Source of the DNA: a virus
Taxonomy: Duplodnaviria; Heunggongvirae; Uroviricota; Caudoviricetes
Direction: 5' to 3' (one strand)
Virus record (IMG/VR): IMGVR_UViG_2537561991_000019
Coordinates: 1-42,125 of that record
Length of the DNA stretch: 42,125 bases
The notes beneath the pieces are model-generated. The model was not told where the DNA came from and made no database searches. It was given only the letters and a program-made list of their open reading frames with translations. Shown piece after piece: positions 22,186 to 42,125 of the stretch (positions are counted from its first letter, which is position 1; each line of letters starts with the position of its first letter). The position numbers and the translations under genes were made by a program.

Positions 22186-23238
22186 TTATTTCCCCACCAG
22201 TTCACTTACCTCTTTCACCGTCTGATTAAACCGCTCTGACTCAAGTTCAACACCTAACGCCCGACGCCCCAGCGCCATTGCTGCTTTTATTGTGGAACCG
22301 GATCCCATAAAGAAATCAGCAACCAGATCACCAGGGCGACTACTGGCATTGATTATTTGCCGGAGCATATCCGCCGGTTTCTCGCACGGATGTTTACCCG
22401 GGTAGAACTGAACGGGTTTATGCGTCCAGACATCGGTATAAGGCACGGAGACTGATACGGAGAAATAGCGCCGGAGAGATTTAAACTCATCCAGCAATTC
22501 AGAATATTTGCGATTCAGTGAATCATAAGATGCCACCAGCTGGTGGTGTGGTTGTTCCAGTTGTTGTTCCTGAAACTTCTCTGCCGCTATACGGGAAAAC
22601 AGTGCCTGTAACTTCCGATAGTCAGCCTCATTCGGCAACTGCCACTGACTGGCACCAAACCAGTGGGAAACCATATTTTTCTTACCTGTGGCTTCGGCAA
22701 TTTGTTTTGCCGTTATACCCAGTTCGGCACGAGCATCCCTGAAATACGATATCAGCGGTGCCATTATGTGCTGTTTGAGTTCCCTTTCTTTTGCTGCATA
22801 GCCGTCACTTTTGCCGCGATATGGCCCCTGGTAATGTTCAGCAAACAGAACGCGCTCTGTGGCAGGAAAATATGCGCGCAGACTTTCTTTATTACACCCA
22901 TTCCAACGTCCGGACGGCTTCGCCCAGATGATATGGTTAAGCACGTTGAAACGTTCACGCATCATGATCTCAATATCAGATGCCAGGCGATGCCCACAGA
23001 ACAGATAAAGGCTTCCGGCAGGTTTTAACACCCGCCAGAACTGGGCCAGACAGTGGTCCAGCCACTTAAGGTAATCTTCGTCCCCTTTCCACTGATTGTC
23101 CCAACCGTTGGGTTTCACCTTGAAGTACGGCGGATCGGTAACAATCAGGTCAATGGAATCATCAGGCAGGGACTGAATAAAATGCAGGCAATCAGCGTTG
23201 ATTAAATCAACACTGTTTATTTTTACAGTATTTTTCAT
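22186..23238 (-). CDS. DNA methyltransferase, beta-class N6-adenine/N4-cytosine type
   Basis: DPPY motif (VTDPPYF) near the N-terminus and an AdoMet-binding FxGSGST motif (FFMGSGST) near the C-terminus. No Shine-Dalgarno before the only available ATG. Confidence 0.8.
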   Translation of the reverse strand: MKNTVKINSVDLINADCLHFIQSLPDDSIDLIVTDPPYFKVKPNGWDNQWKGDEDYLKWLDHCLAQFWRVLKPAGSLYLFCGHRLASDIEIMMRERFNVLNHIIWAKPSGRWNGCNKESLRAYFPATERVLFAEHYQGPYRGKSDGYAAKERELKQHIMAPLISYFRDARAELGITAKQIAEATGKKNMVSHWFGASQWQLPNEADYRKLQALFSRIAAEKFQEQQLEQPHHQLVASYDSLNRKYSELLDEFKSLRRYFSVSVSVPYTDVWTHKPVQFYPGKHPCEKPADMLRQIINASSRPGDLVADFFMGSGSTIKAAMALGRRALGVELESERFNQTVKEVSELVGK

Positions 23239-23868: not shown

Positions 23869-24486
23869 TCAATTATCTTCCAGGCCGGATGCTATCAACG
23901 AAAGCCTCTCAAAAAACGCTGTAGCAGCCTTGTCCAAAGTTGAATAAGTACTGTATTCTCCGTGTTCGGGACCAACCACTACCCATGGTCGTCTTTTTGG
24001 GATTCGGGATTTCTCAGAAATCACTGTTCCAGATATACCAATATCAATTGTTACACCTGTTATTATTTTCTCTTCATCTCTTTCCCTGAACTCAATTGCC
24101 ATAAATGCCGTTTTTTTTCGTTTCCCGTTTTTAAAAAAATCAAATAAAGCAAAGCGATGCTCATTAAAATCAACACCCCATCGTCCTTCAGGATAAAGGG
24201 CATGAAAGTTGTCATTTACGCTCTGCATCGTCTCATAAGCTTTAACTTCTAAATCTCCATAATGCATAGATACCGCGCAGGAGTCACTGGGTAACTGTAT
24301 TTTCCCAAGATTGAAAACCTTTACTGCTCCAGAACTATGGCATCTTGCCCGCAACTTATCCCCATTTATACTAATCGGAGAAATATTCCTTAATGTTCCG
24401 GGCTGGCTCCCTCCTAAGTAAACGACTGTTAAAGATTGCTTATTTTCAATTGCATCAACTAATACATGCTCTACATTTTTATCCAT
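23869..24486 (-). CDS. Uncharacterised protein (~205 aa) in AT-rich cargo DNA between Q and the lysis genes
   Basis: Start at MDKNVEHVLVD preceded by GGGAGG; region visibly more AT-rich than the flanks; followed by its own terminator. No recognisable catalytic motif. Confidence 0.6.
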   Translation of the reverse strand: MDKNVEHVLVDAIENKQSLTVVYLGGSQPGTLRNISPISINGDKLRARCHSSGAVKVFNLGKIQLPSDSCAVSMHYGDLEVKAYETMQSVNDNFHALYPEGRWGVDFNEHRFALFDFFKNGKRKKTAFMAIEFRERDEEKIITGVTIDIGISGTVISEKSRIPKRRPWVVVGPEHGEYSTYSTLDKAATAFFERLSLIASGLEDN

Positions 24487-24561
24487 AATAACCTCCCAAT
24501 GAACAGGTATCATCAGGAGGTTATTATAAAATATGATTATTTACTTTGATTGAATTTATTA

Positions 24562-24948
24562 CTATATGTAACAATCAATTTCTAAAGATACCCCCAACAT
24601 TGCCAGACAACCGTCAATAAACCCTTCAGCTTTCTGCAGTCTGATAACAACCTGATTAAGTGATATCCCCAGTTTTACCCCCAACGCCCGTAATGTAACC
24701 CCATACACATAATACATTTCCAGTAATTCGTATTGATACGGTTCCTTTTTCTTAAGAACTGTCATCGCAGAGCTAATGATCAGGCCATCGTCATCGCTAC
24801 ATTGCGGGCGGGATTTTACTTTCGAAGGAATTAATCCCTTAAAACCTGCAGCAACAGATGACCATTCCACATCCTCGTGATTATTTGCCACCCATGCCCC
24901 CCAACGTTCAAGAACCATTTGAGTATCACGCATCAACTTTCTCCACAA
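24562..24948 (-). CDS. Late-gene antiterminator Q (QuuD-like short Q family)
   Basis: ~123-128 aa, ...MRDTQMVLERWGAWVANNHEDVEWSSVAAGFKGL..., resembling the remembered DLP12 QuuD; sits just upstream of the late region. Start could be the Met at 24933. Confidence 0.7.
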   Translation of the reverse strand: MWRKLMRDTQMVLERWGAWVANNHEDVEWSSVAAGFKGLIPSKVKSRPQCSDDDGLIISSAMTVLKKKEPYQYELLEMYYVYGVTLRALGVKLGISLNQVVIRLQKAEGFIDGCLAMLGVSLEIDCYI

Positions 24949-24950
24949 AA

Positions 24951-25946
24951 TCAGGGCAGCACGCCTATTGCCAGCGCACGATCGATAAAACGAAATATCA
25001 GCTCCAGCTGGGAGCCATACTTCTCTTCAAATGCCACGGTATCCGCATGCAGCTCGTCGTGATGCTTTCTGCACAAAGGCAACACAAAAAGGTCATGCGC
25101 TTTTGTAGCCATTCCACCCTGACCGTGACCTATCAGGTGGTGGGGATCATCAGCAGGCTTTCCACAACATGCACACGGCTGTGTCTTAACCCAGCGCGTG
25201 TACTTTTCATTAACCCAGCGGCGACGTTTTGGGCGTAACATAAAAGACTCCGGCGACTCCGGATCCACTTTCAGCGCCAGCACCTTTTTCGCTTTATCCT
25301 GGATGATGCTGGTGGCAGGAACCGAAGGCACAAGGTCACTTTCCCGGGTGACAGACGGCACAACAGGCTTCGGTAATCTCAGTGCCTTACGGGCTGCACT
25401 TTCCGGTAAGGCATCCGCCAGGTCATTACGAATCAGCCACCAGCACAGTTCCGGCATTGTCACAACGTGACTGTCATCAAAACCGAGATCCCGACGCACA
25501 ACAGACAACACCCAGCGGGTACAGTTATCCGTTGCCATTGATTCCAGTCGTTCCGTGAACTGATCGCGCAGCTGGTTATCGCAGTGCCAGCACAGACGGA
25601 TTGCACCCGGAGCGTGTCGCATTGTGGTCATGTTCTCGCTGTGCCAGTCGGAATGAGGCCACTGGCAGCCTTTTTCACGAAGTAACCAGCTTTCAAGACA
25701 TTCCACGCCACCAGCACGACGGATCACTGCCTCATTGCGGAACACGGCCCGAACGGCAGGATCATCCGCCAGCGGTTGTGATGCCGCCGGAACGGCACCA
25801 CTGGCGAAAGATGAATAACGCTCCGGCTCAGGCTCCAGCAGGACACGCCCCTGCATAAACAGGGGCATCAGCTCTGAACCTGGCCTGAACAATACGATCC
25901 CCATACGCGGGGCAATTTCAGGGGTCAGTAGTGCTCTCACGGTCAC
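24951..25946 (-). CDS. DUF968-like phage protein with C-terminal HNH-like Cys/His motif
   Basis: 331 aa; C-terminal ...CACCGKPADDPHHLIGHG...LPLCRKHHDELH... resembles an HNH/zinc-finger motif; adjacent to Q. Confidence 0.5.
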   Translation of the reverse strand: MTVRALLTPEIAPRMGIVLFRPGSELMPLFMQGRVLLEPEPERYSSFASGAVPAASQPLADDPAVRAVFRNEAVIRRAGGVECLESWLLREKGCQWPHSDWHSENMTTMRHAPGAIRLCWHCDNQLRDQFTERLESMATDNCTRWVLSVVRRDLGFDDSHVVTMPELCWWLIRNDLADALPESAARKALRLPKPVVPSVTRESDLVPSVPATSIIQDKAKKVLALKVDPESPESFMLRPKRRRWVNEKYTRWVKTQPCACCGKPADDPHHLIGHGQGGMATKAHDLFVLPLCRKHHDELHADTVAFEEKYGSQLELIFRFIDRALAIGVLP

Positions 25947-26776: not shown

Positions 26777-27166
26777 TCAGGCGGCTGCACCCGCCGTTTT
26801 CTCGTACTTACTGATAGTGATCTCGACCTTCCCTTTCGGGATAACCGGTCCCCACTCCACCAGCATTCTTTTCACCTGTCTGTCGTCTTCCCACACACCC
26901 GCGTGGGTCAGGGCGTCAAACAGCGCCTTGTTATAGTTGTCCAGATCACGGATCCGGTTATCCGGCGGAAACAACACGATCTCCACTGAAGCAGGTGCCG
27001 ACGTTGGTTTCGGCAGACGACGTAACTGCTCAACTATTGCTGCGCACGCCGCGCTCTGAAATTTTCGCCCCGCCTCGCTTATCAGGCTCTTACCAGCAAA
27101 TGCCCCTTTGTTGGGGTGTCGCCAGTACGTGTTCACACTGGGCGGGAAAGGAAGGATCAACTTCAT
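26777..27166 (-). CDS. rusA: Holliday junction resolvase RusA
   Basis: 129 aa with the RusA pattern ...DNRIRDLDNYNKALFDALTHAGVWEDDRQV... Confidence 0.85.
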   Translation of the reverse strand: MKLILPFPPSVNTYWRHPNKGAFAGKSLISEAGRKFQSAACAAIVEQLRRLPKPTSAPASVEIVLFPPDNRIRDLDNYNKALFDALTHAGVWEDDRQVKRMLVEWGPVIPKGKVEITISKYEKTAGAAA

Positions 27167-27489
27167 ACTTTCAGGCCCCTCTCATGTAACCAGTGGGCTG
27201 CACGCAACCTGGCGCTCTCCTCACCGGCAAGCAGTGCGCGGATGATACCGACCGCTTCGCTGTCGTCGTCCTTCACTGCGGTATGAAGCGTGATCCCCCG
27301 GGCCACGCCACGCTTTATCGTGATGACGCCTTTTTTCTCCAGTGCGCGAAGATGCTCCACCGCTGCATTCACTGAACGGTATCCCAGCATGGTTGCCACC
27401 TCCTGATTGGTTGGCGGAAAGCCACGCTCTTGCTGGTAAGAAATCAGCATATCCAGCACCTGCTGCTGGCATTGAGTTAACGTCGTCAT
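27163..27489 (-). CDS. LexA-like winged-helix DNA-binding domain protein lacking the S24 peptidase domain
   Basis: 108 aa; LTQCQQQVLDMLISYQQERGFPPTNQEVATMLGYRSVNAAVEHLRALEKKGVITIKRGVARGITL aligns with the LexA N-terminal domain; no C-terminal Ser-Lys peptidase region. Confidence 0.6.
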   Translation of the reverse strand: MTTLTQCQQQVLDMLISYQQERGFPPTNQEVATMLGYRSVNAAVEHLRALEKKGVITIKRGVARGITLHTAVKDDDSEAVGIIRALLAGEESARLRAAHWLHERGLKV

Positions 27490-28139
27490 GCCGCCATCTC
27501 CCTGACAAGTTTTTCTGCCTGCTGGCGAACCTGCGCCAGAAACGCCTCACCACATGCCTCAAGTTCATCGCGCCCGATGTAGCTGATTGCCGGTCCCTTC
27601 CAGGTCTTGTCGAAAACAGCAATAGCACCAGCGAAGAAAGCGCCTGTCGGCACCTGCTTCTCGTCCTTCGGGATAAACCAGGCTGGCAGTTCAAAACCAA
27701 TACGCCCGCGAATAAAAGCAATATGGTCTGCATCTTCCGGCCACCACACTTCGCTGGTGGCAGCTTTGATCAGGAAAACATAGCGCCCGCCTTTATCACG
27801 CATAGCACTGGCATGTTTCATGATGTAACGCATGCCGGTGATGTATTGCCCCTCATGCTGACTGGCGCGGCTGTACGGGGGATTACCAAAGGCAGCACCT
27901 TTAAGCTCCGCAAGACGTTCTGACCAGTCATGCGCCAGCGCGTTGTCTTCCGCAGTGTAATAAGCGGCACATTTGGCGTTATCACCATCAGTGAACAGAT
28001 CCAGAACAAACGGGCCAAACAGGGTGTTAATTCCCCAGAAAATGTTGTCCGGCGTGCGCCACTGATCGCCCACTTCCTTCAGTTCATGGGCTGGTTTGTT
28101 CCGCAGTTCCACCAGCGCCTGGCAATATTTATTACTCAT
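27486..28139 (-). CDS. Phage Dam-family N6-adenine DNA methyltransferase
   Basis: Start at MSNKYCQALVEL (TAATG overlap with the upstream stop); NPPY motif (AFGNPPYS). Confidence 0.75.
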   Translation of the reverse strand: MSNKYCQALVELRNKPAHELKEVGDQWRTPDNIFWGINTLFGPFVLDLFTDGDNAKCAAYYTAEDNALAHDWSERLAELKGAAFGNPPYSRASQHEGQYITGMRYIMKHASAMRDKGGRYVFLIKAATSEVWWPEDADHIAFIRGRIGFELPAWFIPKDEKQVPTGAFFAGAIAVFDKTWKGPAISYIGRDELEACGEAFLAQVRQQAEKLVREMAA

Positions 28140-28633
28140 TAAGCCCCCACGTAATTCCCTGATAGATACCACTCTTCACCTGATGCAGCGCGCTTGCTGC
28201 TTTTCCGTAAGCACCGCTCACGACGCGCCAGAAAATTGTTTCGTTCTGGCTGGGAGTGGCTTTCACGGAATGCCGCCATCCACACGGTTGCAGCACGACG
28301 GTATAAGCCCCTTGACTCCAGTTCTTCAGCCTGGCGGGTCAGGCACAAAATCACCCGGGGATCGTTAGTGCCGACATAGAAATTGCGCACAGGTCTGGTT
28401 TCACGAACTGGTTGTGGTTCCGGCTCCTGCGCTCTCTCAGTCAGGCGTGGGAAATGTCTGCGTGTATCTCCTTCACAACGGTGAGCCACACGCCCACTCT
28501 GACGTAACTTGCTTGCAGACTGCAGAACGCGCTGCCGTGAGTAACCTGCAAAAGCATCCGCAATGTCTCCGGAAGTACACCCCGGATGGGCTTCAATGAA
28601 TTTCTGAACTTCATTCAAAAGACTCATGATCAC
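28139..28633 (-). CDS. Hypothetical protein, possibly with a PerC-like regulator C-terminal region
   Basis: 164 aa; ...GLYRRAATVWMAAF... recalls PerC-family regulators (weak); translationally coupled to flanking genes. Confidence 0.35.
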   Translation of the reverse strand: MIMSLLNEVQKFIEAHPGCTSGDIADAFAGYSRQRVLQSASKLRQSGRVAHRCEGDTRRHFPRLTERAQEPEPQPVRETRPVRNFYVGTNDPRVILCLTRQAEELESRGLYRRAATVWMAAFRESHSQPERNNFLARRERCLRKSSKRAASGEEWYLSGNYVGA

Positions 28634-29448
28634 CCCCTGAATCCTACCGGGATCTGGCTGTAGTCCACATTGTCGTAACTGGCTTTGAAGTACGGGTCCT
28701 CGCGTCTGGCTGCAGATACCGCAGGAACTTCCCAGGATTCTTCGAAATGACGATCCGGACCAAAGAACGTGACAGCCTGTTTCACAAATTGTGTGCCGCT
28801 GTTACCCATCGCAGATACCCAGCCCGCGTAGCGTTTCACACCTTCCAGCATGGTTTCGGGGTTTACCCCCTCATTCAAACGGGCTTTCCAGGCTTTGAAG
28901 GCTGCAGATTTTGAATTGCCACCAGCACGTTTGGGATATACCAGCCATGCCTGCTCAAACTCCGGAGAGTATTCCGGTCGGTTTGAACGAACTCGCACAG
29001 ACTCATCAGCAGATGCACCAACAGCTATTGGTTCATTGACTGGTTCTTTGACTGGTTCAAAAGAGTGACTGGTTCTGGGTGAATCTCCTGCACTACCCCC
29101 TGGTGCAACTCCTGCACTACCTGGTGAATTTGCTGCACCAGATAGTGAATTATTTGCACTACCCCCTAGTGAATCTCCTGCACCATCCAGATGAAGGAGA
29201 TAGATATTACTTGAGTTACCTTTTTCACCTTTCCGGGTGACTTTTTTTACCAGCCCGGACTCACAAAGGGCCGCAATATGATTCATCACAGAACGTTTGC
29301 TAATCTCGCACTGGTCAGCAATATGCTGGTAGCTGGGCCAGCACTCCCCCTGATCGCTGGCATTATCAGCCAGCTTGATCAGAACCAGTTTTCGCAATGG
29401 ATTTCCCACTCGAATTTTCATCGCTTTAACCATCAGCTCCATACTCAT
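28630..29448 (-). CDS. Replication initiator (lambda O-like) with internal origin iterons
   Basis: N-terminal HTH/winged-helix region; Gly/Ser/Ala-rich linker encoded by the repeat array; conserved C-terminal domain. Confidence 0.65.
   Translation of the reverse strand: MSMELMVKAMKIRVGNPLRKLVLIKLADNASDQGECWPSYQHIADQCEISKRSVMNHIAALCESGLVKKVTRKGEKGNSSNIYLLHLDGAGDSLGGSANNSLSGAANSPGSAGVAPGGSAGDSPRTSHSFEPVKEPVNEPIAVGASADESVRVRSNRPEYSPEFEQAWLVYPKRAGGNSKSAAFKAWKARLNEGVNPETMLEGVKRYAGWVSAMGNSGTQFVKQAVTFFGPDRHFEESWEVPAVSAARREDPYFKASYDNVDYSQIPVGFRG
29078..29188. repeat. Candidate replication-origin iterons: about five ~21-23 bp direct repeats inside the O-like gene
   Basis: Plus-strand units ggtgaatctcctgcactaccccc / tggtgcaactcctgcactacc / tggtgaatttgctgcaccag / atagtgaattatttgcactaccccc / tagtgaatctcctgcaccatcc, followed by AT-rich sequence. 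Confidence 0.55.
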
Positions 29449-29669: not shown

Positions 29670-30109
29670 TTGCGCCCCCTTACCTCTGAAGAGTTCAGCG
29701 ACGAATGAATAAGACGGGCAAGAAATGCCGCATCGTTAATTCGGTCATACAGACTTACAGCCAGCGGTGATTCAGCTTTTTCCAGCATGGGATAAAGCTG
29801 CTGCAACCAGACCTGATGAATTGATGAAATGTAGGAATAGAGAACGCTGGCGTTATGTGCAACGTCGCTCGGTACAGAGGGCTTTGAAAGCTGTTTCTCC
29901 ATCTGGTTAAAGGCATTGATGTATGCCTCTTTGAACTGGGCAGCACGTTTACCCGTGAAACCCATAGCAAGAAACGCAAAGCCATCGCGGGTTATTTGAT
30001 AGCAAGGTAGTTTGCGAGTACCGCCGTTGGGCTGGCGTACCAAAATTGATGTCTCCGCAAAATTGCGGGCACAAAACTCTGGAGAACAATCCAAAATGCG
30101 AATCTTTTT
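29666..30109 (-). pseudogene. 3' fragment of a Rha-domain regulatory gene split by the IS66 insertion
   Basis: ...YQITRDGFAFLAMGFTGKRAAQFKEAYINAFNQME... is the remembered Rha core; the reading frame rejoins in frame with the fragment at 32809-32931 when the IS and one copy of the target duplication are removed. Confidence 0.7.
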
Positions 30110-30162
30110 GTAACCGGCTCATTTAAACCGTCTGGTCTGTTTCCTCCGGCTCTACAAAAATA

Positions 30163-30840
30163 ATGTCCATCATTTTTAATGGACACTATCGTATGAAACA
30201 CCGGACCTGGATCACTGAAGCTTTACGTCTTCACTTTGAAGAACATTTACCCCGGGTTGTGGCCGGGCGTCGCCTGGGTGTACCAAAATCAACAGTTTGT
30301 AGTATGTTCGTGCGCTTTCGGAGAGCTGGCCTTTCGTGGCCTTTGCCCGCAGGCATGTCGGAGCAGGAACTTGATGCCTGCCTTTACGGACAATTTTCCA
30401 CGGTACCAGTCGTACGTCCTGAAAGCACCGTTATATCCGAAGCCCCCGTGGTAAAAAAACGTCCCCGGCGGCCCAACTTCCCTTATGAGTTTAAAATCGC
30501 CTTAGTGGAGCAGTCACTGCAGCCCGGAGCCTGTGTGGCGCAGATCGCCCGGGAAAACGGAATCAACGATAACCTGCTCTTCAACTGGCGCCATCAATAC
30601 CGGAAAGGTGGCCTGCTGCCTTCCGGAAAAAATATGCCGGCACTGCTTCCCGTGACGTTAACGCCGGAGCCGGATAATAAAATCCCGGCCCCCGCACAGG
30701 AACCAGAGCAGATAAATACACCGTCCGACAGTCTGTGTTGTGAGCTGGTTCTGCCGGCCGGAACTCTCAGGCTTAAAGGTAAACTGACGCCGGCGTTATT
30801 ACAGACACTTATCCGCGAAATAAAAGGGAGCAGCCACTGA
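30163..30840 (+). CDS. IS66-family accessory protein (orfA)
   Basis: First ORF of the element with an HTH-like segment; stop overlaps the orfB start. Confidence 0.65.
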   Translation: MSIIFNGHYRMKHRTWITEALRLHFEEHLPRVVAGRRLGVPKSTVCSMFVRFRRAGLSWPLPAGMSEQELDACLYGQFSTVPVVRPESTVISEAPVVKKRPRRPNFPYEFKIALVEQSLQPGACVAQIARENGINDNLLFNWRHQYRKGGLLPSGKNMPALLPVTLTPEPDNKIPAPAQEPEQINTPSDSLCCELVLPAGTLRLKGKLTPALLQTLIREIKGSSH

Positions 30841-31187
30841 TGATATCTCTCCCTGCAGGTTCGCGTATCTGGCTGGTTGCAGGTATCACCGATATGCGAA
30901 ATGGCTTTAACGGCCTGGCATCAAAAGTTCAGAACGTCCTGAAGGATGACCCGTTCTCCGGACACCTGTTCATCTTCCGCGGACGCCGGGGTGACCAGAT
31001 AAAAGTGTTGTGGGCTGACAGTGACGGACTGTGCCTCTTCACCAAACGCCTGGAGCGGGGCCGCTTCGTCTGGCCAGTCACCCGTGACGGCAAGGTGCAC
31101 CTTACTCCGGCTCAGTTATCCATGCTTCTTGAAGGTATCAACTGGAAGCACCCGAAACGAACGGAACGCGCTGGAATCCGCATATAA
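30840..31187 (+). CDS. IS66-family accessory protein (orfB)
   Basis: 115 aa, MISLPAGSRIWLVAGITDMRNGFNGLA..., characteristic IS66 Orf2. Confidence 0.8.
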   Translation: MISLPAGSRIWLVAGITDMRNGFNGLASKVQNVLKDDPFSGHLFIFRGRRGDQIKVLWADSDGLCLFTKRLERGRFVWPVTRDGKVHLTPAQLSMLLEGINWKHPKRTERAGIRI

Positions 31188-31206
31188 CCCGTTGTAAAGT
31201 GAGGAT

Positions 31207-32779
31207 ATGGACACCTCACTTGCTCATGAGAACGCCCGCCTGCGGGCACTGTTGCAGACGCAACAGGACACCATCCGCCAGATGGCTGAATACAACCGCC
31301 TGCTCTCACAGCGGGTGGCGGCTTATGCTTCCGAAATCAACCGGCTGAAGGCGCTGGTTGCGAAACTGCAACGTATGCAGTTCGGTAAAAGCTCAGAAAA
31401 ACTTCGTGCAAAAACCGAACGGCAGATACAGGAAGCACAGGAGCGAATCAGCGCACTTCAGGAAGAAATGGCGGAAACGCTGGGTGAGCAATATGACCCG
31501 GTACTGCCATCCGCCCTGCGCCAGTCTTCAGCCCGTAAACCGTTACCGGCCTCACTTCCCCGTGAAACCCGGGTTATCCGGCCGGAAGAGGAATGCTGTC
31601 CTGCCTGTGGTGGTGAACTCAGTTCTCTGGGATGTGATGTGTCAGAGCAACTGGAGCTTATCAGCAGCGCCTTTAAGGTTATCGAAACACAACGTCCGAA
31701 ACAGGCCTGTTGCCGGTGCGACCATATCGTGCAGGCACCAGTACCTTCAAAACCCATTGCACGCAGTTATGCCGGAGCGGGGCTTCTGGCCCATGTTGTC
31801 ACCGGGAAATATGCAGACCATCTGCCGTTATACCGCCAGTCAGAAATATACCGTCGTCAGGGAGTGGAGCTGAGCCGTGCCACACTGGGGCGCTGGACAG
31901 GTGCTGTTGCTGAACTGCTGGAGCCGCTGTATGACGTCCTGCGCCAGTATGTGCTGAATGCCCGGTAAAGTCCATGCTGATGATATCCCCGTCCCGGTCC
32001 AGGAGCCGGGCAGCGGTAAAACCCGGACAGCCCGGCTGTGGGTCTACGTCCGTGATGACCGTAACGCCGGTTCACAGATGCCCCCGGCGGTCTGGTTCGC
32101 GTACAGTCCGGACCGGAAAGGTATCCATCCACAAAATCACCTGGCCGGTTACAGCGGTGTGCTTCAGGCCGATGCTTACGGTGGTTACCGGGCGTTATAC
32201 GAATCCGGCAGAATAACGGAAGTCGCGTGTATGGCTCATGCCCGGAGAAAAATCCACGATGTGCATGCAAGAGCGCCCACCTACATCACCACGGAAGCCC
32301 TGCAGCGTATCGGTGAACTGTATGCCATCGAGGCAGAGGTCCGGGGCTGTTCAGCAGAACAGCGTCTGGCGGCAAGAAAAGCCAGAGCCGCGCCACTGAT
32401 GCAGTCACTGTATGACTGGATACAGCAACAGATGAAAACACTGTCGCGTCACTCAGATACGGCAAAAGCGTTCGCATACCTGCTGAAACAGTGGGATGCA
32501 CTGAACGTGTACTGCAGTAATGGCTGGGTGGAAATCGACAACAACATCGCAGAGAACGCCTTACGGGGAGTGGCCGTAGGCCGGAAAAACTGGATGTTCG
32601 CGGGTTCCGACAGCGGTGGTGAACATGCGGCGGTGTTGTACTCGCTGATCGGCACATGCCGTCTGAACAATGTGGAGCCAGAAAAGTGGCTGCGTTACGT
32701 CATTGAACATATCCAGGACTGGCCGGCAAACCGGGTACGCGATCTGTTGCCCTGGAAAGTTGATCTGAGCTCTCAGTAA
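31207..32779 (+). pseudogene. IS66-family transposase (orfC) interrupted by a frameshift near 31958-31968
   Basis: Two overlapping ORFs (253 aa and 273 aa) together have the length and features of one IS66 transposase (leucine-zipper-like N-terminus, CPACGGEL zinc-finger-like motif, catalytic core). Confidence 0.7.
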
Positions 32780-32808
32780 ATATCAATACGGTTCTGACGA
32801 GTCGCTTA

Positions 32809-33537
32809 CATCTTTTTCAGAACATCGTCATGACGTTTAGAGAAGAAGTCAGCAACAGCCAAAGAAGATGTAACAGCCTGACCATCAACGATGGCAATTT
32901 CAGGTTGAGAGAGGGTTGGGAGAGTAGTCATAGTGACAGCCCCGGTAGTCAGTTTTTTAGAAAACTCACCACATGGGACGCCAATCACAGAGGTGGTGAG
33001 ACGTACAGGGTTGGCGTTACCGGAGACTACCGAACCCGGCCCGACCGAAGTCGGCCCTGTACGCCCCACCATAATTTGGGCGTAGCAATGCTCATGACAC
33101 GAAAAAACCGCATGAGCGCGGTTATGCTCAGTAATCAATTTCAGGACGCCAATCCCGGCACCCGCTTTATAAGGTGCCTGAACAGTGTAACGTCCCGGAA
33201 TGGCAGAATCAATGTGCTGGTGGTCCTTCACACTCAACAAAATCACGCCTGAATTTCCACAAAGGACTAAAGCACTCATGCGGGTAGTCTTTGCGAAGAT
33301 AGATAACGCGCTGAGTTTCTGGCTCCCAACGAATAACATGGACATAAAGCCCTCTTCCATCACGAAACCAGCGGTTAAGTTCCTGCACAACTCGCCCCCC
33401 ACAGTCAGGTAAAGTTCTCTGTGGTTACTTACAGCCAGGTGATTTGGTAATCTGCATTCATGCCGTAACAACAGGTGTTCAGCGACACTGACCACCAGCT
33501 GTTGCGACAAACGGTTATTTGCCGTTAAACTGTTCAT
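32809..33537 (-). pseudogene. 5' portion of the IS-disrupted gene; its last 41 codons are the Rha-domain N-terminus
   Basis: MTTLPTLSQPEIAIVDGQAVTSSLAVADFFSKRHDDVLKK runs into the IS inverted repeat. The open frame extends upstream to an ATGA overlap with the preceding gene, so the true start is unclear. Confidence 0.5.
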
Positions 33538-34419: not shown

Positions 34420-35094
34420 ATGAAAACAGTCCATGACATCCGGCGGTCTAACGCCAGAAAACTGAGAGATGGTGTTGGCGGGAATTCTTCCTTTGCCACC
34501 ATGATTGATCGCGAGCCAACCCAGACCAGCAGGTTTATGGGAGATGGTGCTACTAAAAATATCGGTGACAGCATGGCACGGCACATCGAAAAATGTTTCG
34601 ACCTGCCTGTCGGATGGCTTGATCAAGAACACCAGACAACAAACATCACAAAAAAACCTGATGTTTCAATTACTAACAAACAAATAACGTTAGTCCCTGT
34701 CATATCATGGGTACAGGCCGGAGCATGGAAAGAAGTTGGCTATTCTGAGGTTGATTTGAGCACAGCAGAAACTTATCCCTGCCCTGTACCCTGTGGCGAA
34801 ATGACTTATATCTTGCGGGTGATTGGTGATTCAATGATTGATGAGTACCGCCCGGGAGACATGATTTTTGTTGATCCTGAAGTCCCTGCCTGCCACGGTG
34901 ACGACGTTATTGCATTGATGCACGATACAGGCGAAACCACCTTCAAGCGGTTGATAGAAGATGGAACACAGCGTTATCTCAAAGCATTAAACCCAAACTG
35001 GCCTGAGCCTTACATTAAGATTAACGGTAATTGCTCTATAATTGGTACAGTAATTTTCTCAGGAAAACCAAGAAGATACAAAATAAAGGCCTAA
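34420..35094 (+). CDS. cI: CI-type prophage repressor (N-terminal HTH, C-terminal S24 LexA-like autopeptidase domain)
   Basis: 224 aa; C-terminal RVIGDSM serine motif and an Ala-Gly candidate cleavage site (VQAGAW); divergent from cro; essentially leaderless. Confidence 0.85.
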   Translation: MKTVHDIRRSNARKLRDGVGGNSSFATMIDREPTQTSRFMGDGATKNIGDSMARHIEKCFDLPVGWLDQEHQTTNITKKPDVSITNKQITLVPVISWVQAGAWKEVGYSEVDLSTAETYPCPVPCGEMTYILRVIGDSMIDEYRPGDMIFVDPEVPACHGDDVIALMHDTGETTFKRLIEDGTQRYLKALNPNWPEPYIKINGNCSIIGTVIFSGKPRRYKIKA

Positions 35095-37140: not shown

Positions 37141-37677
37141 ATGTCATTTATTAAAACTTTTTCCGGGAAGCATTTTTATTATGACAAGATAAATAAAGAC
37201 GACATCGTGCTTAACGATATCGCAGTTTCCCTCTCAAATATCTGTCGCTTTGCAGGGCATCTTTCACACTTCTACAGCGTCGCCCAACATGCGGTGCTTT
37301 GCAGCCAGCTGGTACCGCAGGAGTTTGCTTTCGAAGCGTTAATGCATGATGCAACAGAAGCATATTGCCAGGACATCCCCGCGCCACTGAAACGACTTCT
37401 TCCTGACTATAAACGGATGGAAGAAAAAATAGACGCCGTAATCCGTGAGAAATACGGGTTACCTCCTGTTATGAGCACGCCAGTGAAATATGCCGATCTC
37501 ATTATGCTGGCAACCGAACGCCGCGATCTCGGGCTTGATGATGGCTCTTTCTGGCCTGTACTGGAAGGCATCCCGGCAACAGAGATGTTCAAAGTTATTC
37601 CACTGTCACCAGGCCATGCCTACGGGATGTTTATGGAACGTTTTAACGAGTTATCGGAATTACGCAAATGTGCATAA
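37141..37677 (+). CDS. yfdR: HD-domain phosphohydrolase (YfdR-like 5'-deoxynucleotidase)
   Basis: Start at MSFIKTF preceded by GGAGAA; HD-type metal-binding pattern (...AQHAVLC...MHDATEAY...). Confidence 0.7.
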   Translation: MSFIKTFSGKHFYYDKINKDDIVLNDIAVSLSNICRFAGHLSHFYSVAQHAVLCSQLVPQEFAFEALMHDATEAYCQDIPAPLKRLLPDYKRMEEKIDAVIREKYGLPPVMSTPVKYADLIMLATERRDLGLDDGSFWPVLEGIPATEMFKVIPLSPGHAYGMFMERFNELSELRKCA

Positions 37678-38546
37678 CTCATGTAGTTAGTTTTTCTGGC
37701 GGGAGAACATCTGCATATCTTGTTCACCTGATGGAAGAACAAAGAAAGACTGGAAATAACGTCTGCTACATCTTTATGGATACCGGTTGCGAACATCCGC
37801 TGACATACCGCTTTATTCGGGAGGTTGTGAAGTTCTGGGGCATACCGCTAACTGTGTTGCAGGTCGATATAAATCCAGAGCTTGGGCAGCCAAATGGTTA
37901 TACGGAATGGGAACCAAAGGATATTCAGACACGAATGCCGGTGCTTAAACCGTTTATGGACATGGTAAAAAAATATGGCACGCCATACATCGGCGGCGCG
38001 TTCTGCACTGACAGATTAAAACTCACCCCCTTCACAAAATACTGCGATGACCATTTCGGACGAGGGAATTACATCACATGGCTGGGTATTCGTGCAGACG
38101 AACCTCGTAGGCTGAAACCGAAATCGGGCGTCCGGTATCTTGCCGAGCTATCTGATTTTGATAAGTCGGATGTTATCCGGTGGTGGCATAAACAACCTTT
38201 TGATTTGCAAATCCCGGAGCACCTCGGGAACTGTGTTTTCTGCATCAAAAAGTCCACGCAAAAGCTGGGGCTTGCATGTAAAGACGAACCTGGTCTGATG
38301 CGAGTTTTTAATGAGCTGGTTACAGGTAAACACGTCCGGGATGGTCACCGAAAGACAAATAAAGACGTTATGTACCGTGGTCATCTGAGCCTTGACGGGA
38401 TTGCCAGAATGTATGCCGACAGCGACTACAGAAATTTGTATCAGGCGATGGTGCAAGCCAGGCGATTCGATACCGGCTCGTGTTCAGAGTCATGTGAAAT
38501 CTGGGGTGATCAATTGGAATTGAAATTCGAAGAGGTGGTGGCATGA
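37668..38546 (+). CDS. PAPS-reductase-like / PP-loop ATP pyrophosphatase family protein
   Basis: N-terminal SFSGGRTS PP-loop-like motif; overlaps the end of the yfdR-like gene. Confidence 0.6.
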   Translation: MCITHVVSFSGGRTSAYLVHLMEEQRKTGNNVCYIFMDTGCEHPLTYRFIREVVKFWGIPLTVLQVDINPELGQPNGYTEWEPKDIQTRMPVLKPFMDMVKKYGTPYIGGAFCTDRLKLTPFTKYCDDHFGRGNYITWLGIRADEPRRLKPKSGVRYLAELSDFDKSDVIRWWHKQPFDLQIPEHLGNCVFCIKKSTQKLGLACKDEPGLMRVFNELVTGKHVRDGHRKTNKDVMYRGHLSLDGIARMYADSDYRNLYQAMVQARRFDTGSCSESCEIWGDQLELKFEEVVA

Positions 38547-41112: not shown

Positions 41113-41143
41113 ACAAAAAACCCGCTTCGGCGGGTTAGTTTTC
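41113..41143. terminator. Bidirectional intrinsic terminator between the convergent operons
   Basis: CCCGC-TTCG-GCGGG flanked by AAAAAA on one side and TTAGTTTTC on the other; sits between the plus-strand gene ending at 41108 and the minus-strand gene ending at 41135. Confidence 0.6.
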
Positions 41144-41569
41144 ATCTTTATAATTCTGGGCAATTCGCGCCAGATAGCTCATCACATCATGTTTTCTTGC
41201 TTTTTCATGTGCATCGGGATACATAATAGCAATGAGTGAATATTTATTCTCATAAAGCTCACCTTGGACATACACAAGACAAGCATCATTATCAGGATCA
41301 CCTTTCTTGCAGACCCTATCCGGTTGTGGAAGTTTCTCGGGAAACTTGTTTGGCGGTAGACAAAGATGGATATGCATCAACCCAGCCCGAAAAGCACCAT
41401 AAGGCTGAGTATACGCAACGTCCCTACCGAAATAATGCGGAAGCTCACCGGTTGCTTTGTATCTCTTGAAATCATCAATGATAGAAGACTCTAGCTCCGG
41501 GAATTTGAGAAAAACTTCATCAAAAAATTCAGCTCTAGTTTCTGGATTAATAGAGACTTCTAGATGCAT
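41135..41569 (-). CDS. Hypothetical protein, possibly a YafO-family toxin
   Basis: 144 aa; several motifs (...HYFGRD...HIHL...LVYVQG...SLIAIMYPDAHEKAR...) resemble my recollection of YafO-family mRNA interferases; AT-rich locus. Memory-based and unverified. Confidence 0.3.
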   Translation of the reverse strand: MHLEVSINPETRAEFFDEVFLKFPELESSIIDDFKRYKATGELPHYFGRDVAYTQPYGAFRAGLMHIHLCLPPNKFPEKLPQPDRVCKKGDPDNDACLVYVQGELYENKYSLIAIMYPDAHEKARKHDVMSYLARIAQNYKDEN

Positions 41570-41585
41570 GGTCGTCCGCTATCGG

Positions 41586-42125
41586 TTAGTGAAATTGCAT
41601 CGATTTTAGCTTATTTGATGTGTGACTAGCTAGTGCTGCAATTCCAGCAAGATCCGCGCGCCCGCTAAAAGTAACAGTTTCTTTAAATATGCTCTTTATG
41701 TAATTGTTAAGGCGAGTGACAGATGAGCGAGCTTTAGCAATATGACGCCAGTAAACCTTCAGTTCTGACCTGATAAATTCAGGCAGAGGCGATTCAATTG
41801 TACGCTTCACTTCTTCTTCAAAAGCACGCAGGAACATTTCGCATGCCTCTGTCGTATCTGTCCCGTTTTTGGAAACAAACTCGCGAGCATCTTGGCTATT
41901 AAGATCAATCAAACAGATATAGTAGTCATCTGCTGCAATTGTTAACTTTTGCAAGATCTCCTTACCCTCTTCCATTTTGCGTGAGAATTCCTCAACAGAA
42001 GGAGAGTACTCAAAAGGTTTAGCAATCACAGGGGCTGGCTGGATGATGAACTCCTGCGCCATAGCAGCAGGACAAGCCAGAGGCCCGCACAATGCAGCAA
42101 AAGTAATGGCGTTAAACGGATTCAT
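41586..42125 (-). CDS. Hypothetical protein with signal-peptide-like N-terminus, upstream partner of the possible toxin gene
   Basis: 179-aa ORF whose first codon is at the very edge of the window (may extend beyond); 17 nt upstream of the YafO-like ORF. Confidence 0.4.
   Translation of the reverse strand: MNPFNAITFAALCGPLACPAAMAQEFIIQPAPVIAKPFEYSPSVEEFSRKMEEGKEILQKLTIAADDYYICLIDLNSQDAREFVSKNGTDTTEACEMFLRAFEEEVKRTIESPLPEFIRSELKVYWRHIAKARSSVTRLNNYIKSIFKETVTFSGRADLAGIAALASHTSNKLKSMQFH

Follow-up and report, generated by a model that had tools for sequence, protein, structure and literature searches.

The window analysed here is a stretch of 42,125 nucleotides of viral DNA (Caudoviricetes; the whole of IMG/VR record IMGVR_UViG_2537561991_000019 from position 1), and it carries on its minus strand a gene for a phage N6-adenine DNA methyltransferase of the T1-Dam type, referred to below as Dam. 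The best explanation of this gene, held at a probability of roughly 0.7, is that Dam is a functional stand-alone enzyme, most likely specific for GATC, which is made from an early operon and keeps the replicating phage DNA methylated, with a second, M.EcoGII-like enzyme acting late. This reading joins the family, motifs and fold of the protein, the order and overlaps of the genes, the lack of a nuclease partner and the prevalence of the gene, as found, to a specificity for GATC, a timing and a benefit which we infer. The two genes in question are the following:

27486 to 28139, minus strand: T1-Dam-type phage N6-adenine DNA methyltransferase, 217 residues (PF05869, TIGR01712, motifs, AlphaFold model, identical database protein)
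22186 to 23238, minus strand: beta-class N6-adenine methyltransferase, M.EcoGII-like, 350 residues, in the late region (PF01555, E = 1.3e-42)

The Dam open reading frame (ORF), as read from the window, starts with ATG at 28139 and stops at 27486. An alternative GTG start at 28172 would make the protein 11 residues longer; in an alignment of homologues the N termini (MSNKY, MPNKY or MNxY) fall at the position of the ATG, which favours 28139 as the start. An identical protein (P0012) is present in the database under the name 'phage N-6-adenine-methyltransferase'. The Pfam family PF05869, 'DNA N-6-adenine-methyltransferase (Dam)', is matched with an E value of 9.7e-46 and 156 bits against a cutoff of 28.1, over profile positions 3–167 of 169. 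The NCBIfam equivalog TIGR01712 (phage_N6A_met, 'phage N-6-adenine-methyltransferase') is matched over all of its positions, 1–165 of 165, with an E value of 1.5e-76 and 255.6 bits against a cutoff of 97.05, and the REBASE-derived Type II methyltransferase model of PADLOC, PDLC03263, is matched from end to end (8e-159). All three matches are far beyond chance. They bear out the original prediction, which had called a methyltransferase gene at 27486–28139; its placement of the gene in a replication module was also correct, as Dam lies within a packed minus-strand run of genes that extends from an O-like initiator to the antiterminator Q.

The catalytic motif IV, (D/N)PPY, is present as NPPY at residues N86-P87-P88-Y89. 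Judged from 20 diverse homologues of 32–70% identity, the residues D25, W27, T29, D47, N54 and N66, the NPPY motif, G145 and R146 are invariant in the family, and all of them are kept in the window Dam; most of these positions are also conserved in an alignment with the Dam proteins of phage T1 and staphylococcal phage 80. Sequence searches of the PDB, with the Dam protein and a 20-sequence profile as queries, returned nothing meaningful, so the fold was obtained by prediction. The AlphaFold model has a pLDDT (predicted local distance difference test) score of 94.6 and displays a class I Rossmann-fold methyltransferase core, and Dam is predicted with high confidence to be a minimal Rossmann methyltransferase. 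Its motif order is unpermuted, with an NPPY active site. Two insertions mark the lambdoid subfamily, at residues ~91–104 (following NPPYSR) and 150–165 (preceding the C-terminal helix), together with a long C-terminal helix.

When the Dam model was used as a Foldseek query, PCIF1, whose motif is NPPF, was ranked first. PCIF1 (CAPAM), a cap-specific adenosine N6-methyltransferase, is a structural neighbour only and not a family member, being a much larger eukaryotic RNA enzyme with 12–14% identity. Its top rank is consistent with the unpermuted M.TaqI/EcoKI-type group, to which Iyer et al. assigned both PCIF1 and the methyltransferase domain of DIRS1 (PMC4738411). PF05869 is also cited in a study of fungal DIRS/Ngaro retrotransposons (PMC3783388).

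Despite the shared Pfam name, the window Dam is of another lineage than host Dam (PF02086), and the label 'Dam' conceals this separate lineage, which is without a solved structure. No match to PF02086, the alpha-class family of E. coli Dam, was found with Pfam at E ≤ 0.01. The similarity to E. coli Dam and T4 Dam is limited to the core fold, where 109 residues superpose at 9% identity, and both of those enzymes possess an inserted DNA-recognition domain which is absent from the window Dam. Non-specific enzymes of the Hia5/M.HaeV type were considered as members of PF05869 and rejected, as they belong to the E. coli Dam-like class. In other genomes, bifunctional proteins of 640–690 residues (P0126, P0128 and P0133) combine a C5-cytosine methyltransferase (PF00145) with a PF05869 domain at its C terminus.

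For two members of the family, the specificity could be documented. T1 Dam (M.EcoT1Dam, YP_003925.1) belongs to PF05869 and is 24% identical to the window Dam (E = 2e-9), with which it shares the N-terminal DxWxTP, D47, N54, N66, NPPY and GRxxF; like the window Dam, it is an orphan enzyme whose gene lies among DNA-metabolism genes. It differs in coming from a virulent phage and in having a 37-residue N-terminal extension, and it lacks the segments after NPPYSR and at ~150–165 and the C-terminal helix. In a dam- host, T1 Dam renders GATC sites sensitive to DpnI, while host Dam alone methylates T1 DNA only partly, and deletion of T1 Dam lowers the burst size by ~40% even in a dam+ host (PMC10470545). 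The second enzyme, PamA of a phi11-type prophage of S. aureus, has 141 residues and an NPPY motif, and also makes DNA sensitive to DpnI, indicating methylation of GATC (PMC12435837). PamA is placed in PF05869 by inference from the staphylococcal phage 80 'dam', a homologue of equal length (141 residues) which belongs to PF05869 and whose gene stands just after the replication genes. Both staphylococcal proteins share NPPY with the window Dam but lack its C-terminal third. T1 Dam and PamA are mutually very distant, and both act on GATC. By analogy with these two enzymes, the window Dam most likely methylates GATC, and so probably shares its target with host Dam. GATC occurs 148 times in the window, at 0.72 of the number expected from a Markov estimate, which is unremarkable among palindromic tetramers and uninformative on specificity.

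The neighbourhood of Dam is that of a lambda-like prophage. Its main genes, in the order in which they are transcribed on the minus strand, and the repressor gene which faces them, are:

28630 to 29448, minus strand: O-like replication initiator with a helix-turn-helix and a DnaD-like C-terminal part, at the head of the replication/nin run (PF13730, E = 1.8e-11; phrog_270, 4e-88)
28139 to 28633, minus strand: PerC/YfdN-like protein, directly upstream of Dam (PF06069 PerC, E = 8e-9)
27163 to 27489, minus strand: 108-residue protein with a LexA DNA-binding domain only and no S24 peptidase (PF01726, E = 2.6e-19, residues 1–65)
26777 to 27166, minus strand: RusA Holliday-junction resolvase (PF05866, E = 1e-14)
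24951 to 25946, minus strand: DUF968 protein with an HNH-type nuclease signature (PF16784, 2.7e-6; phrog_96)
24562 to 24948, minus strand: Q antiterminator, at the boundary between the early genes, Dam among them, and the late genes, which include the beta-class enzyme (PF06530, E = 5.6e-47)
34420 to 35094, plus strand: cI-type repressor with an S24 peptidase domain, facing the minus-strand Dam operon (PF00717, E = 1.5e-26, and gene order)

In full, the minus-strand order is a cro/cII-like region, a split Ash/Rha antirepressor-like gene, the O-like initiator, the PerC/YfdN-like gene, Dam, the LexA-like gene, RusA, a KilA-N gene, DUF968 and Q; after Q come a gene for a 214-residue protein, the PF01555 methyltransferase, holin, endolysin, Rz and terminase. 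The lambda-like Escherichia phage PhiR40_1 is collinear with the window, in reversed orientation, over ~32 kb, and its annotation calls the equivalent of the window repressor cI. The ATG of Dam overlaps the TAA stop of the PerC-like gene by one base (TAATG), with a Shine–Dalgarno-like run of five G residues just upstream, and four-base ATGA overlaps join the stop of Dam to the start of the LexA-like gene and the LexA-like gene to RusA. Owing to these overlaps, Dam is assigned to a translationally coupled early run. A scan of the run for consensus promoters gave 11 internal signals against 12.4 expected, a number not above the shuffled background, and a scan for terminators gave no signal above shuffled controls.

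The G5 run at the junction of the PerC-like gene and Dam (28141–28150, minus strand, gtgggggcttaATG) has a G6 variant that fuses the two ORFs into proteins of 380 residues (...YVGGLMSNK). Many such 380-residue PerC–Dam entries exist in the database, in various sequence backgrounds; among 80 viral loci, G6 is found in one and G4 in one. A designed fusion was rejected as their explanation, since they arise from a change of G5 to G6 and are rare (1/80 loci); they are probably products of slippage or of homopolymer sequencing error.

Since Dam stands in a translationally coupled early run of a lambda-like prophage, it is expected to be silent in the lysogen, where the early rightward operon would be repressed, and to be made after induction or infection. 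Dam would then be made from the operon alongside the replication and nin proteins, and would methylate GATC on newly replicated phage DNA, with which host Dam, on the T1 precedent, could not keep pace. The gain to the phage would be a higher yield, and progeny DNA protected from enzymes that cut unmethylated GATC. Subsequently, Q-dependent late transcription would supply the M.EcoGII-like enzyme, giving broad adenine methylation just before packaging and lysis.

The gene for this second enzyme (22186–23238) lies immediately upstream of holin. Its product is 81% identical over its full length (283 of 349 positions) to M.EcoGII, whose sequence was taken from a machine-read (optical character recognition) copy of Table S1 of PMC11551740 with a few reading errors. 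The identity to the enzyme of phage 1720a-02, which has been named as a close relative of M.EcoGII (PMC5778455), is likewise 81%. The protein has the beta-class order, with DPPY at residues 35–38 and FMGSGS near the C terminus, which, together with the high full-length identity, places it in the M.EcoGII-like class (DPPY ... FxGxG). Like M.EcoGII and M.EcoGI, it has a prophage location. M.EcoGII acts on adenine irrespective of its context; constitutive expression is toxic, and in the lysogen the enzyme is not expressed (PMC5778455). Non-specific activity has been shown for M.EcoGII only, and the window allele, at 19% divergence, would have it by homology. Given that the partner of Dam is a relative of M.EcoGII, the phage probably combines early, site-specific methylation of adenine with late, blanket methylation. 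Such a pair bears on the crossing of restriction barriers by phages and on the reading of methylomes from induced cultures.

The original prediction had paired Dam with a beta-class amino-methyltransferase near the lysis genes, a description upheld by the match to PF01555 and the adjacency of holin; both genes are intact. It had further called the two enzymes unrelated. This is true of sequence, as hhalign, run with the Dam alignment against the 22186–23238 protein, gave no relationship (probability 0.4%), and of motif order, but both enzymes share a Rossmann fold and the (D/N)PPY catalytic motif. Its statement that neither had an obvious restriction partner was confirmed: Pfam, PADLOC and PHROGs detected no restriction endonuclease domain around either methyltransferase gene, or among the other early genes and the early-left genes scanned. 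Dam is thus an orphan enzyme, with the PerC-like, LexA-like, RusA, KilA-N, DUF968 and Q genes for neighbours. The DUF968 protein, despite its HNH signature, was not counted as a restriction partner, as it presumably occupies the position of the NinG/Rap-type recombination nuclease in lambdoid nin regions. Layered protection against restriction, also proposed from the outset, is plausible. The prototype M.EcoGII being non-specific, however, the layers would be temporal, early and site-specific then late and general, rather than two separate site specificities.

Dam is a widespread gene. Among 5,426 complete genomes of E. coli, 2,102 (~39%) contain DNA of 95–100% identity to it, in up to four copies each; PGAP labels it there 'phage N-6-adenine-methyltransferase', with 'PerC family' and 'LexA family' genes on either side. 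The gene was already known under its correct name in these genomes, and as a discovery it therefore carries little weight. A 2.8-kb Dam module is 97–98.5% identical in many Shiga toxin 2 (Stx2) phages, in PhiR40_1 and in 1720a-02. The last two phages carry both methyltransferases, and published Shiga toxin (Stx) and lambda-like phages have the two-methyltransferase layout. The comparison among viruses drew on 80 IMG/VR loci that encode an identical Dam. The LexA-like gene is found at a fixed offset of +650 from Dam, and RusA at +973, in 80 of these 80 loci; a PerC-like gene is upstream of Dam in 73. Of the 52 loci whose downstream sequence reaches 7 kb or more, 20 have an M.EcoGII-like gene. 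The two genes often occur together but need not, as one would expect of mosaic modules, and each enzyme must be useful alone.

Several points weigh against the early, GATC-specific role proposed for Dam. The specificity is extrapolated from relatives at only 24–41% identity, and the lambdoid insertions, missing from T1 Dam and the phage 80 enzyme, could change recognition; no direct test on the lambdoid 217-residue subfamily was found among the papers searched. A GATC enzyme also looks redundant in dam+ E. coli, so that its benefit would rest on the T1 precedent, and a non-specific late enzyme would cover GATC as well. Finally, an IS66 insertion sequence (IS) element, described below, separates Dam from the inferred early promoter region, and may reduce or abolish expression in this copy.

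The first of these points leads to the strongest of the alternatives, which is nonetheless doubtful: that Dam is active on a target other than GATC, whether another short motif or one of relaxed specificity. The low identity to T1 Dam, the two subfamily insertions and the long C-terminal helix would allow for this, and promiscuity can occur among small phage methyltransferases that have no separate recognition domain, Hia5/M.HaeV (PMC3299994) and M.EcoGII (PMC5778455) being examples. Hia5, however, lies outside PF05869. Within the family, T1 Dam and PamA have kept GATC as their target though very divergent, and the phage 80 homologue of PamA's length is a confirmed member.

It is somewhat less probable that Dam is intact yet functionally idle here, in a prophage crippled by an insertion upstream. 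The insertion is:

30110 to 32809, plus strand: IS66-family element, 2,700 bp long, which separates the replication–Dam–Q run from the immunity/cII region (IS66 Orf1, Orf2 and transposase domains)

The element is bounded by terminal inverted repeats (GTAA...C) and by an 8-bp target duplication, ATCTTTTT, at 30102–30109 and 32810–32817. Its transposase is split into two ORFs (31207–31968 and 31958–32779). It is inserted antisense, downstream of the cII-like gene, where it splits an Ash/Rha antirepressor-like gene of ~385 residues, and it contains a terminator-like hairpin on the minus strand (30707–30684). The insertion may be polar on Dam, Q and the other early-right genes, or the prophage may be defective. 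Dam and its neighbours are nevertheless free of decay, and the protein is identical to that of PhiR40_1, a phage deposited as a complete genome which, like 1720a-02, does not have the element. Loss of expression would in any case concern this copy and not the identity of the gene.

A role in lysogenic conversion, in which the prophage would express Dam and so alter host gene expression epigenetically, is very unlikely. Its precedent is PamA, an NPPY adenine methyltransferase at GATC which is expressed in the lysogen and shifts the transcription and virulence of S. aureus (PMC12435837), and effects of both enzymes on the host had been suggested in the original prediction. S. aureus, however, has no Dam of its own, whereas in E. 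coli ~99.9% of GATC sites are already methylated (PMC6602927). The window Dam is enclosed in a repressor-controlled early operon by overlapping stops and starts, with no promoter signal above background in the run, and the M.EcoGII-like gene also belongs to an operon that a lysogen should keep silent. Published methylomes agree, with homologues of M.EcoGI/M.EcoGII and of phage Dam silent or undetectable in lysogens (PMC6602927, PMC4659465, PMC5778455). Epigenetic action of Dam on the host is accordingly poorly supported and unlikely.

Two further ideas, that Dam makes a different adenine modification together with a phosphoadenosine phosphosulfate (PAPS)-reductase-like protein, or that a cassette of Dam, the LexA-like protein and RusA links methylation state to SOS and recombination control in lytic growth, are together highly improbable. 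The 108-residue LexA-like protein consists of a LexA DNA-binding domain and a short tail, without the S24 self-cleavage domain; from this composition, it could be a non-cleavable LexA mimic which re-represses SOS genes during lytic growth. The gene that bears on the other idea is in the early-left region:

37668 to 38546, plus strand: PAPS-reductase-like early-left protein, 292 residues (53% identity to the C-terminal part of P0143)

P0143 is a genuine Dam–PAPS-reductase fusion of 571 residues, encoded in the early-left operon of another prophage (locus L088, 6001–7716), and the two parts also occur together in the family PHROG 33262. That Dam and the 292-residue protein jointly make a modification more complex than methylation is the least probable of all the alternatives, for this natural fusion and the two-part family are set against a PAPS-like gene in no more than 3 of the 55 related loci that extend far enough upstream, which shows that any functional link to Dam is not obligatory, against a Dam in 1720a-02 that is identical at 216 of 217 residues with no PAPS-like gene at the corresponding position in the part of the genome compared, and against T1 Dam and PamA, which work alone as plain methyltransferases.

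The fusion family touches on a matter of annotation. Stand-alone PF05869 Dam genes carry the label 'phosphoadenosine phosphosulfate reductase' in three RefSeq phage records:

iEPS5 gp22 (locus L086, 2504–3208): mislabelled Dam gene
E21 gp35 (locus L087, 2501–3238): mislabelled Dam gene
NC_049941.1: mislabelled Dam gene

The label is an error, probably transferred from the fusion family. The genes flanking Dam in Chi-like phages were considered as PAPS reductases in their own right and rejected, as iEPS5 gp21 and E21 gp36 are not such enzymes. Through mislabelled Dam genes, viromes can appear richer in sulfur auxiliary metabolic genes than they are.

Two other genes of the window lie apart from these subjects. 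The first is between Q and the beta-class methyltransferase:

23869 to 24513, minus strand: 214-residue protein, low GC content (~0.39) (phrog_8498; weak WYL-like match)

It is present in 6 of the 80 related loci, occupies the slot where Stx phages carry stx, and looks like a moron. The second is at the right end of the window (41135–42125, minus strand), beside the phage early-left region, where a YafO toxin gene (PF13957) stands next to an ORF annotated as the YafM antitoxin in PhiR40_1.
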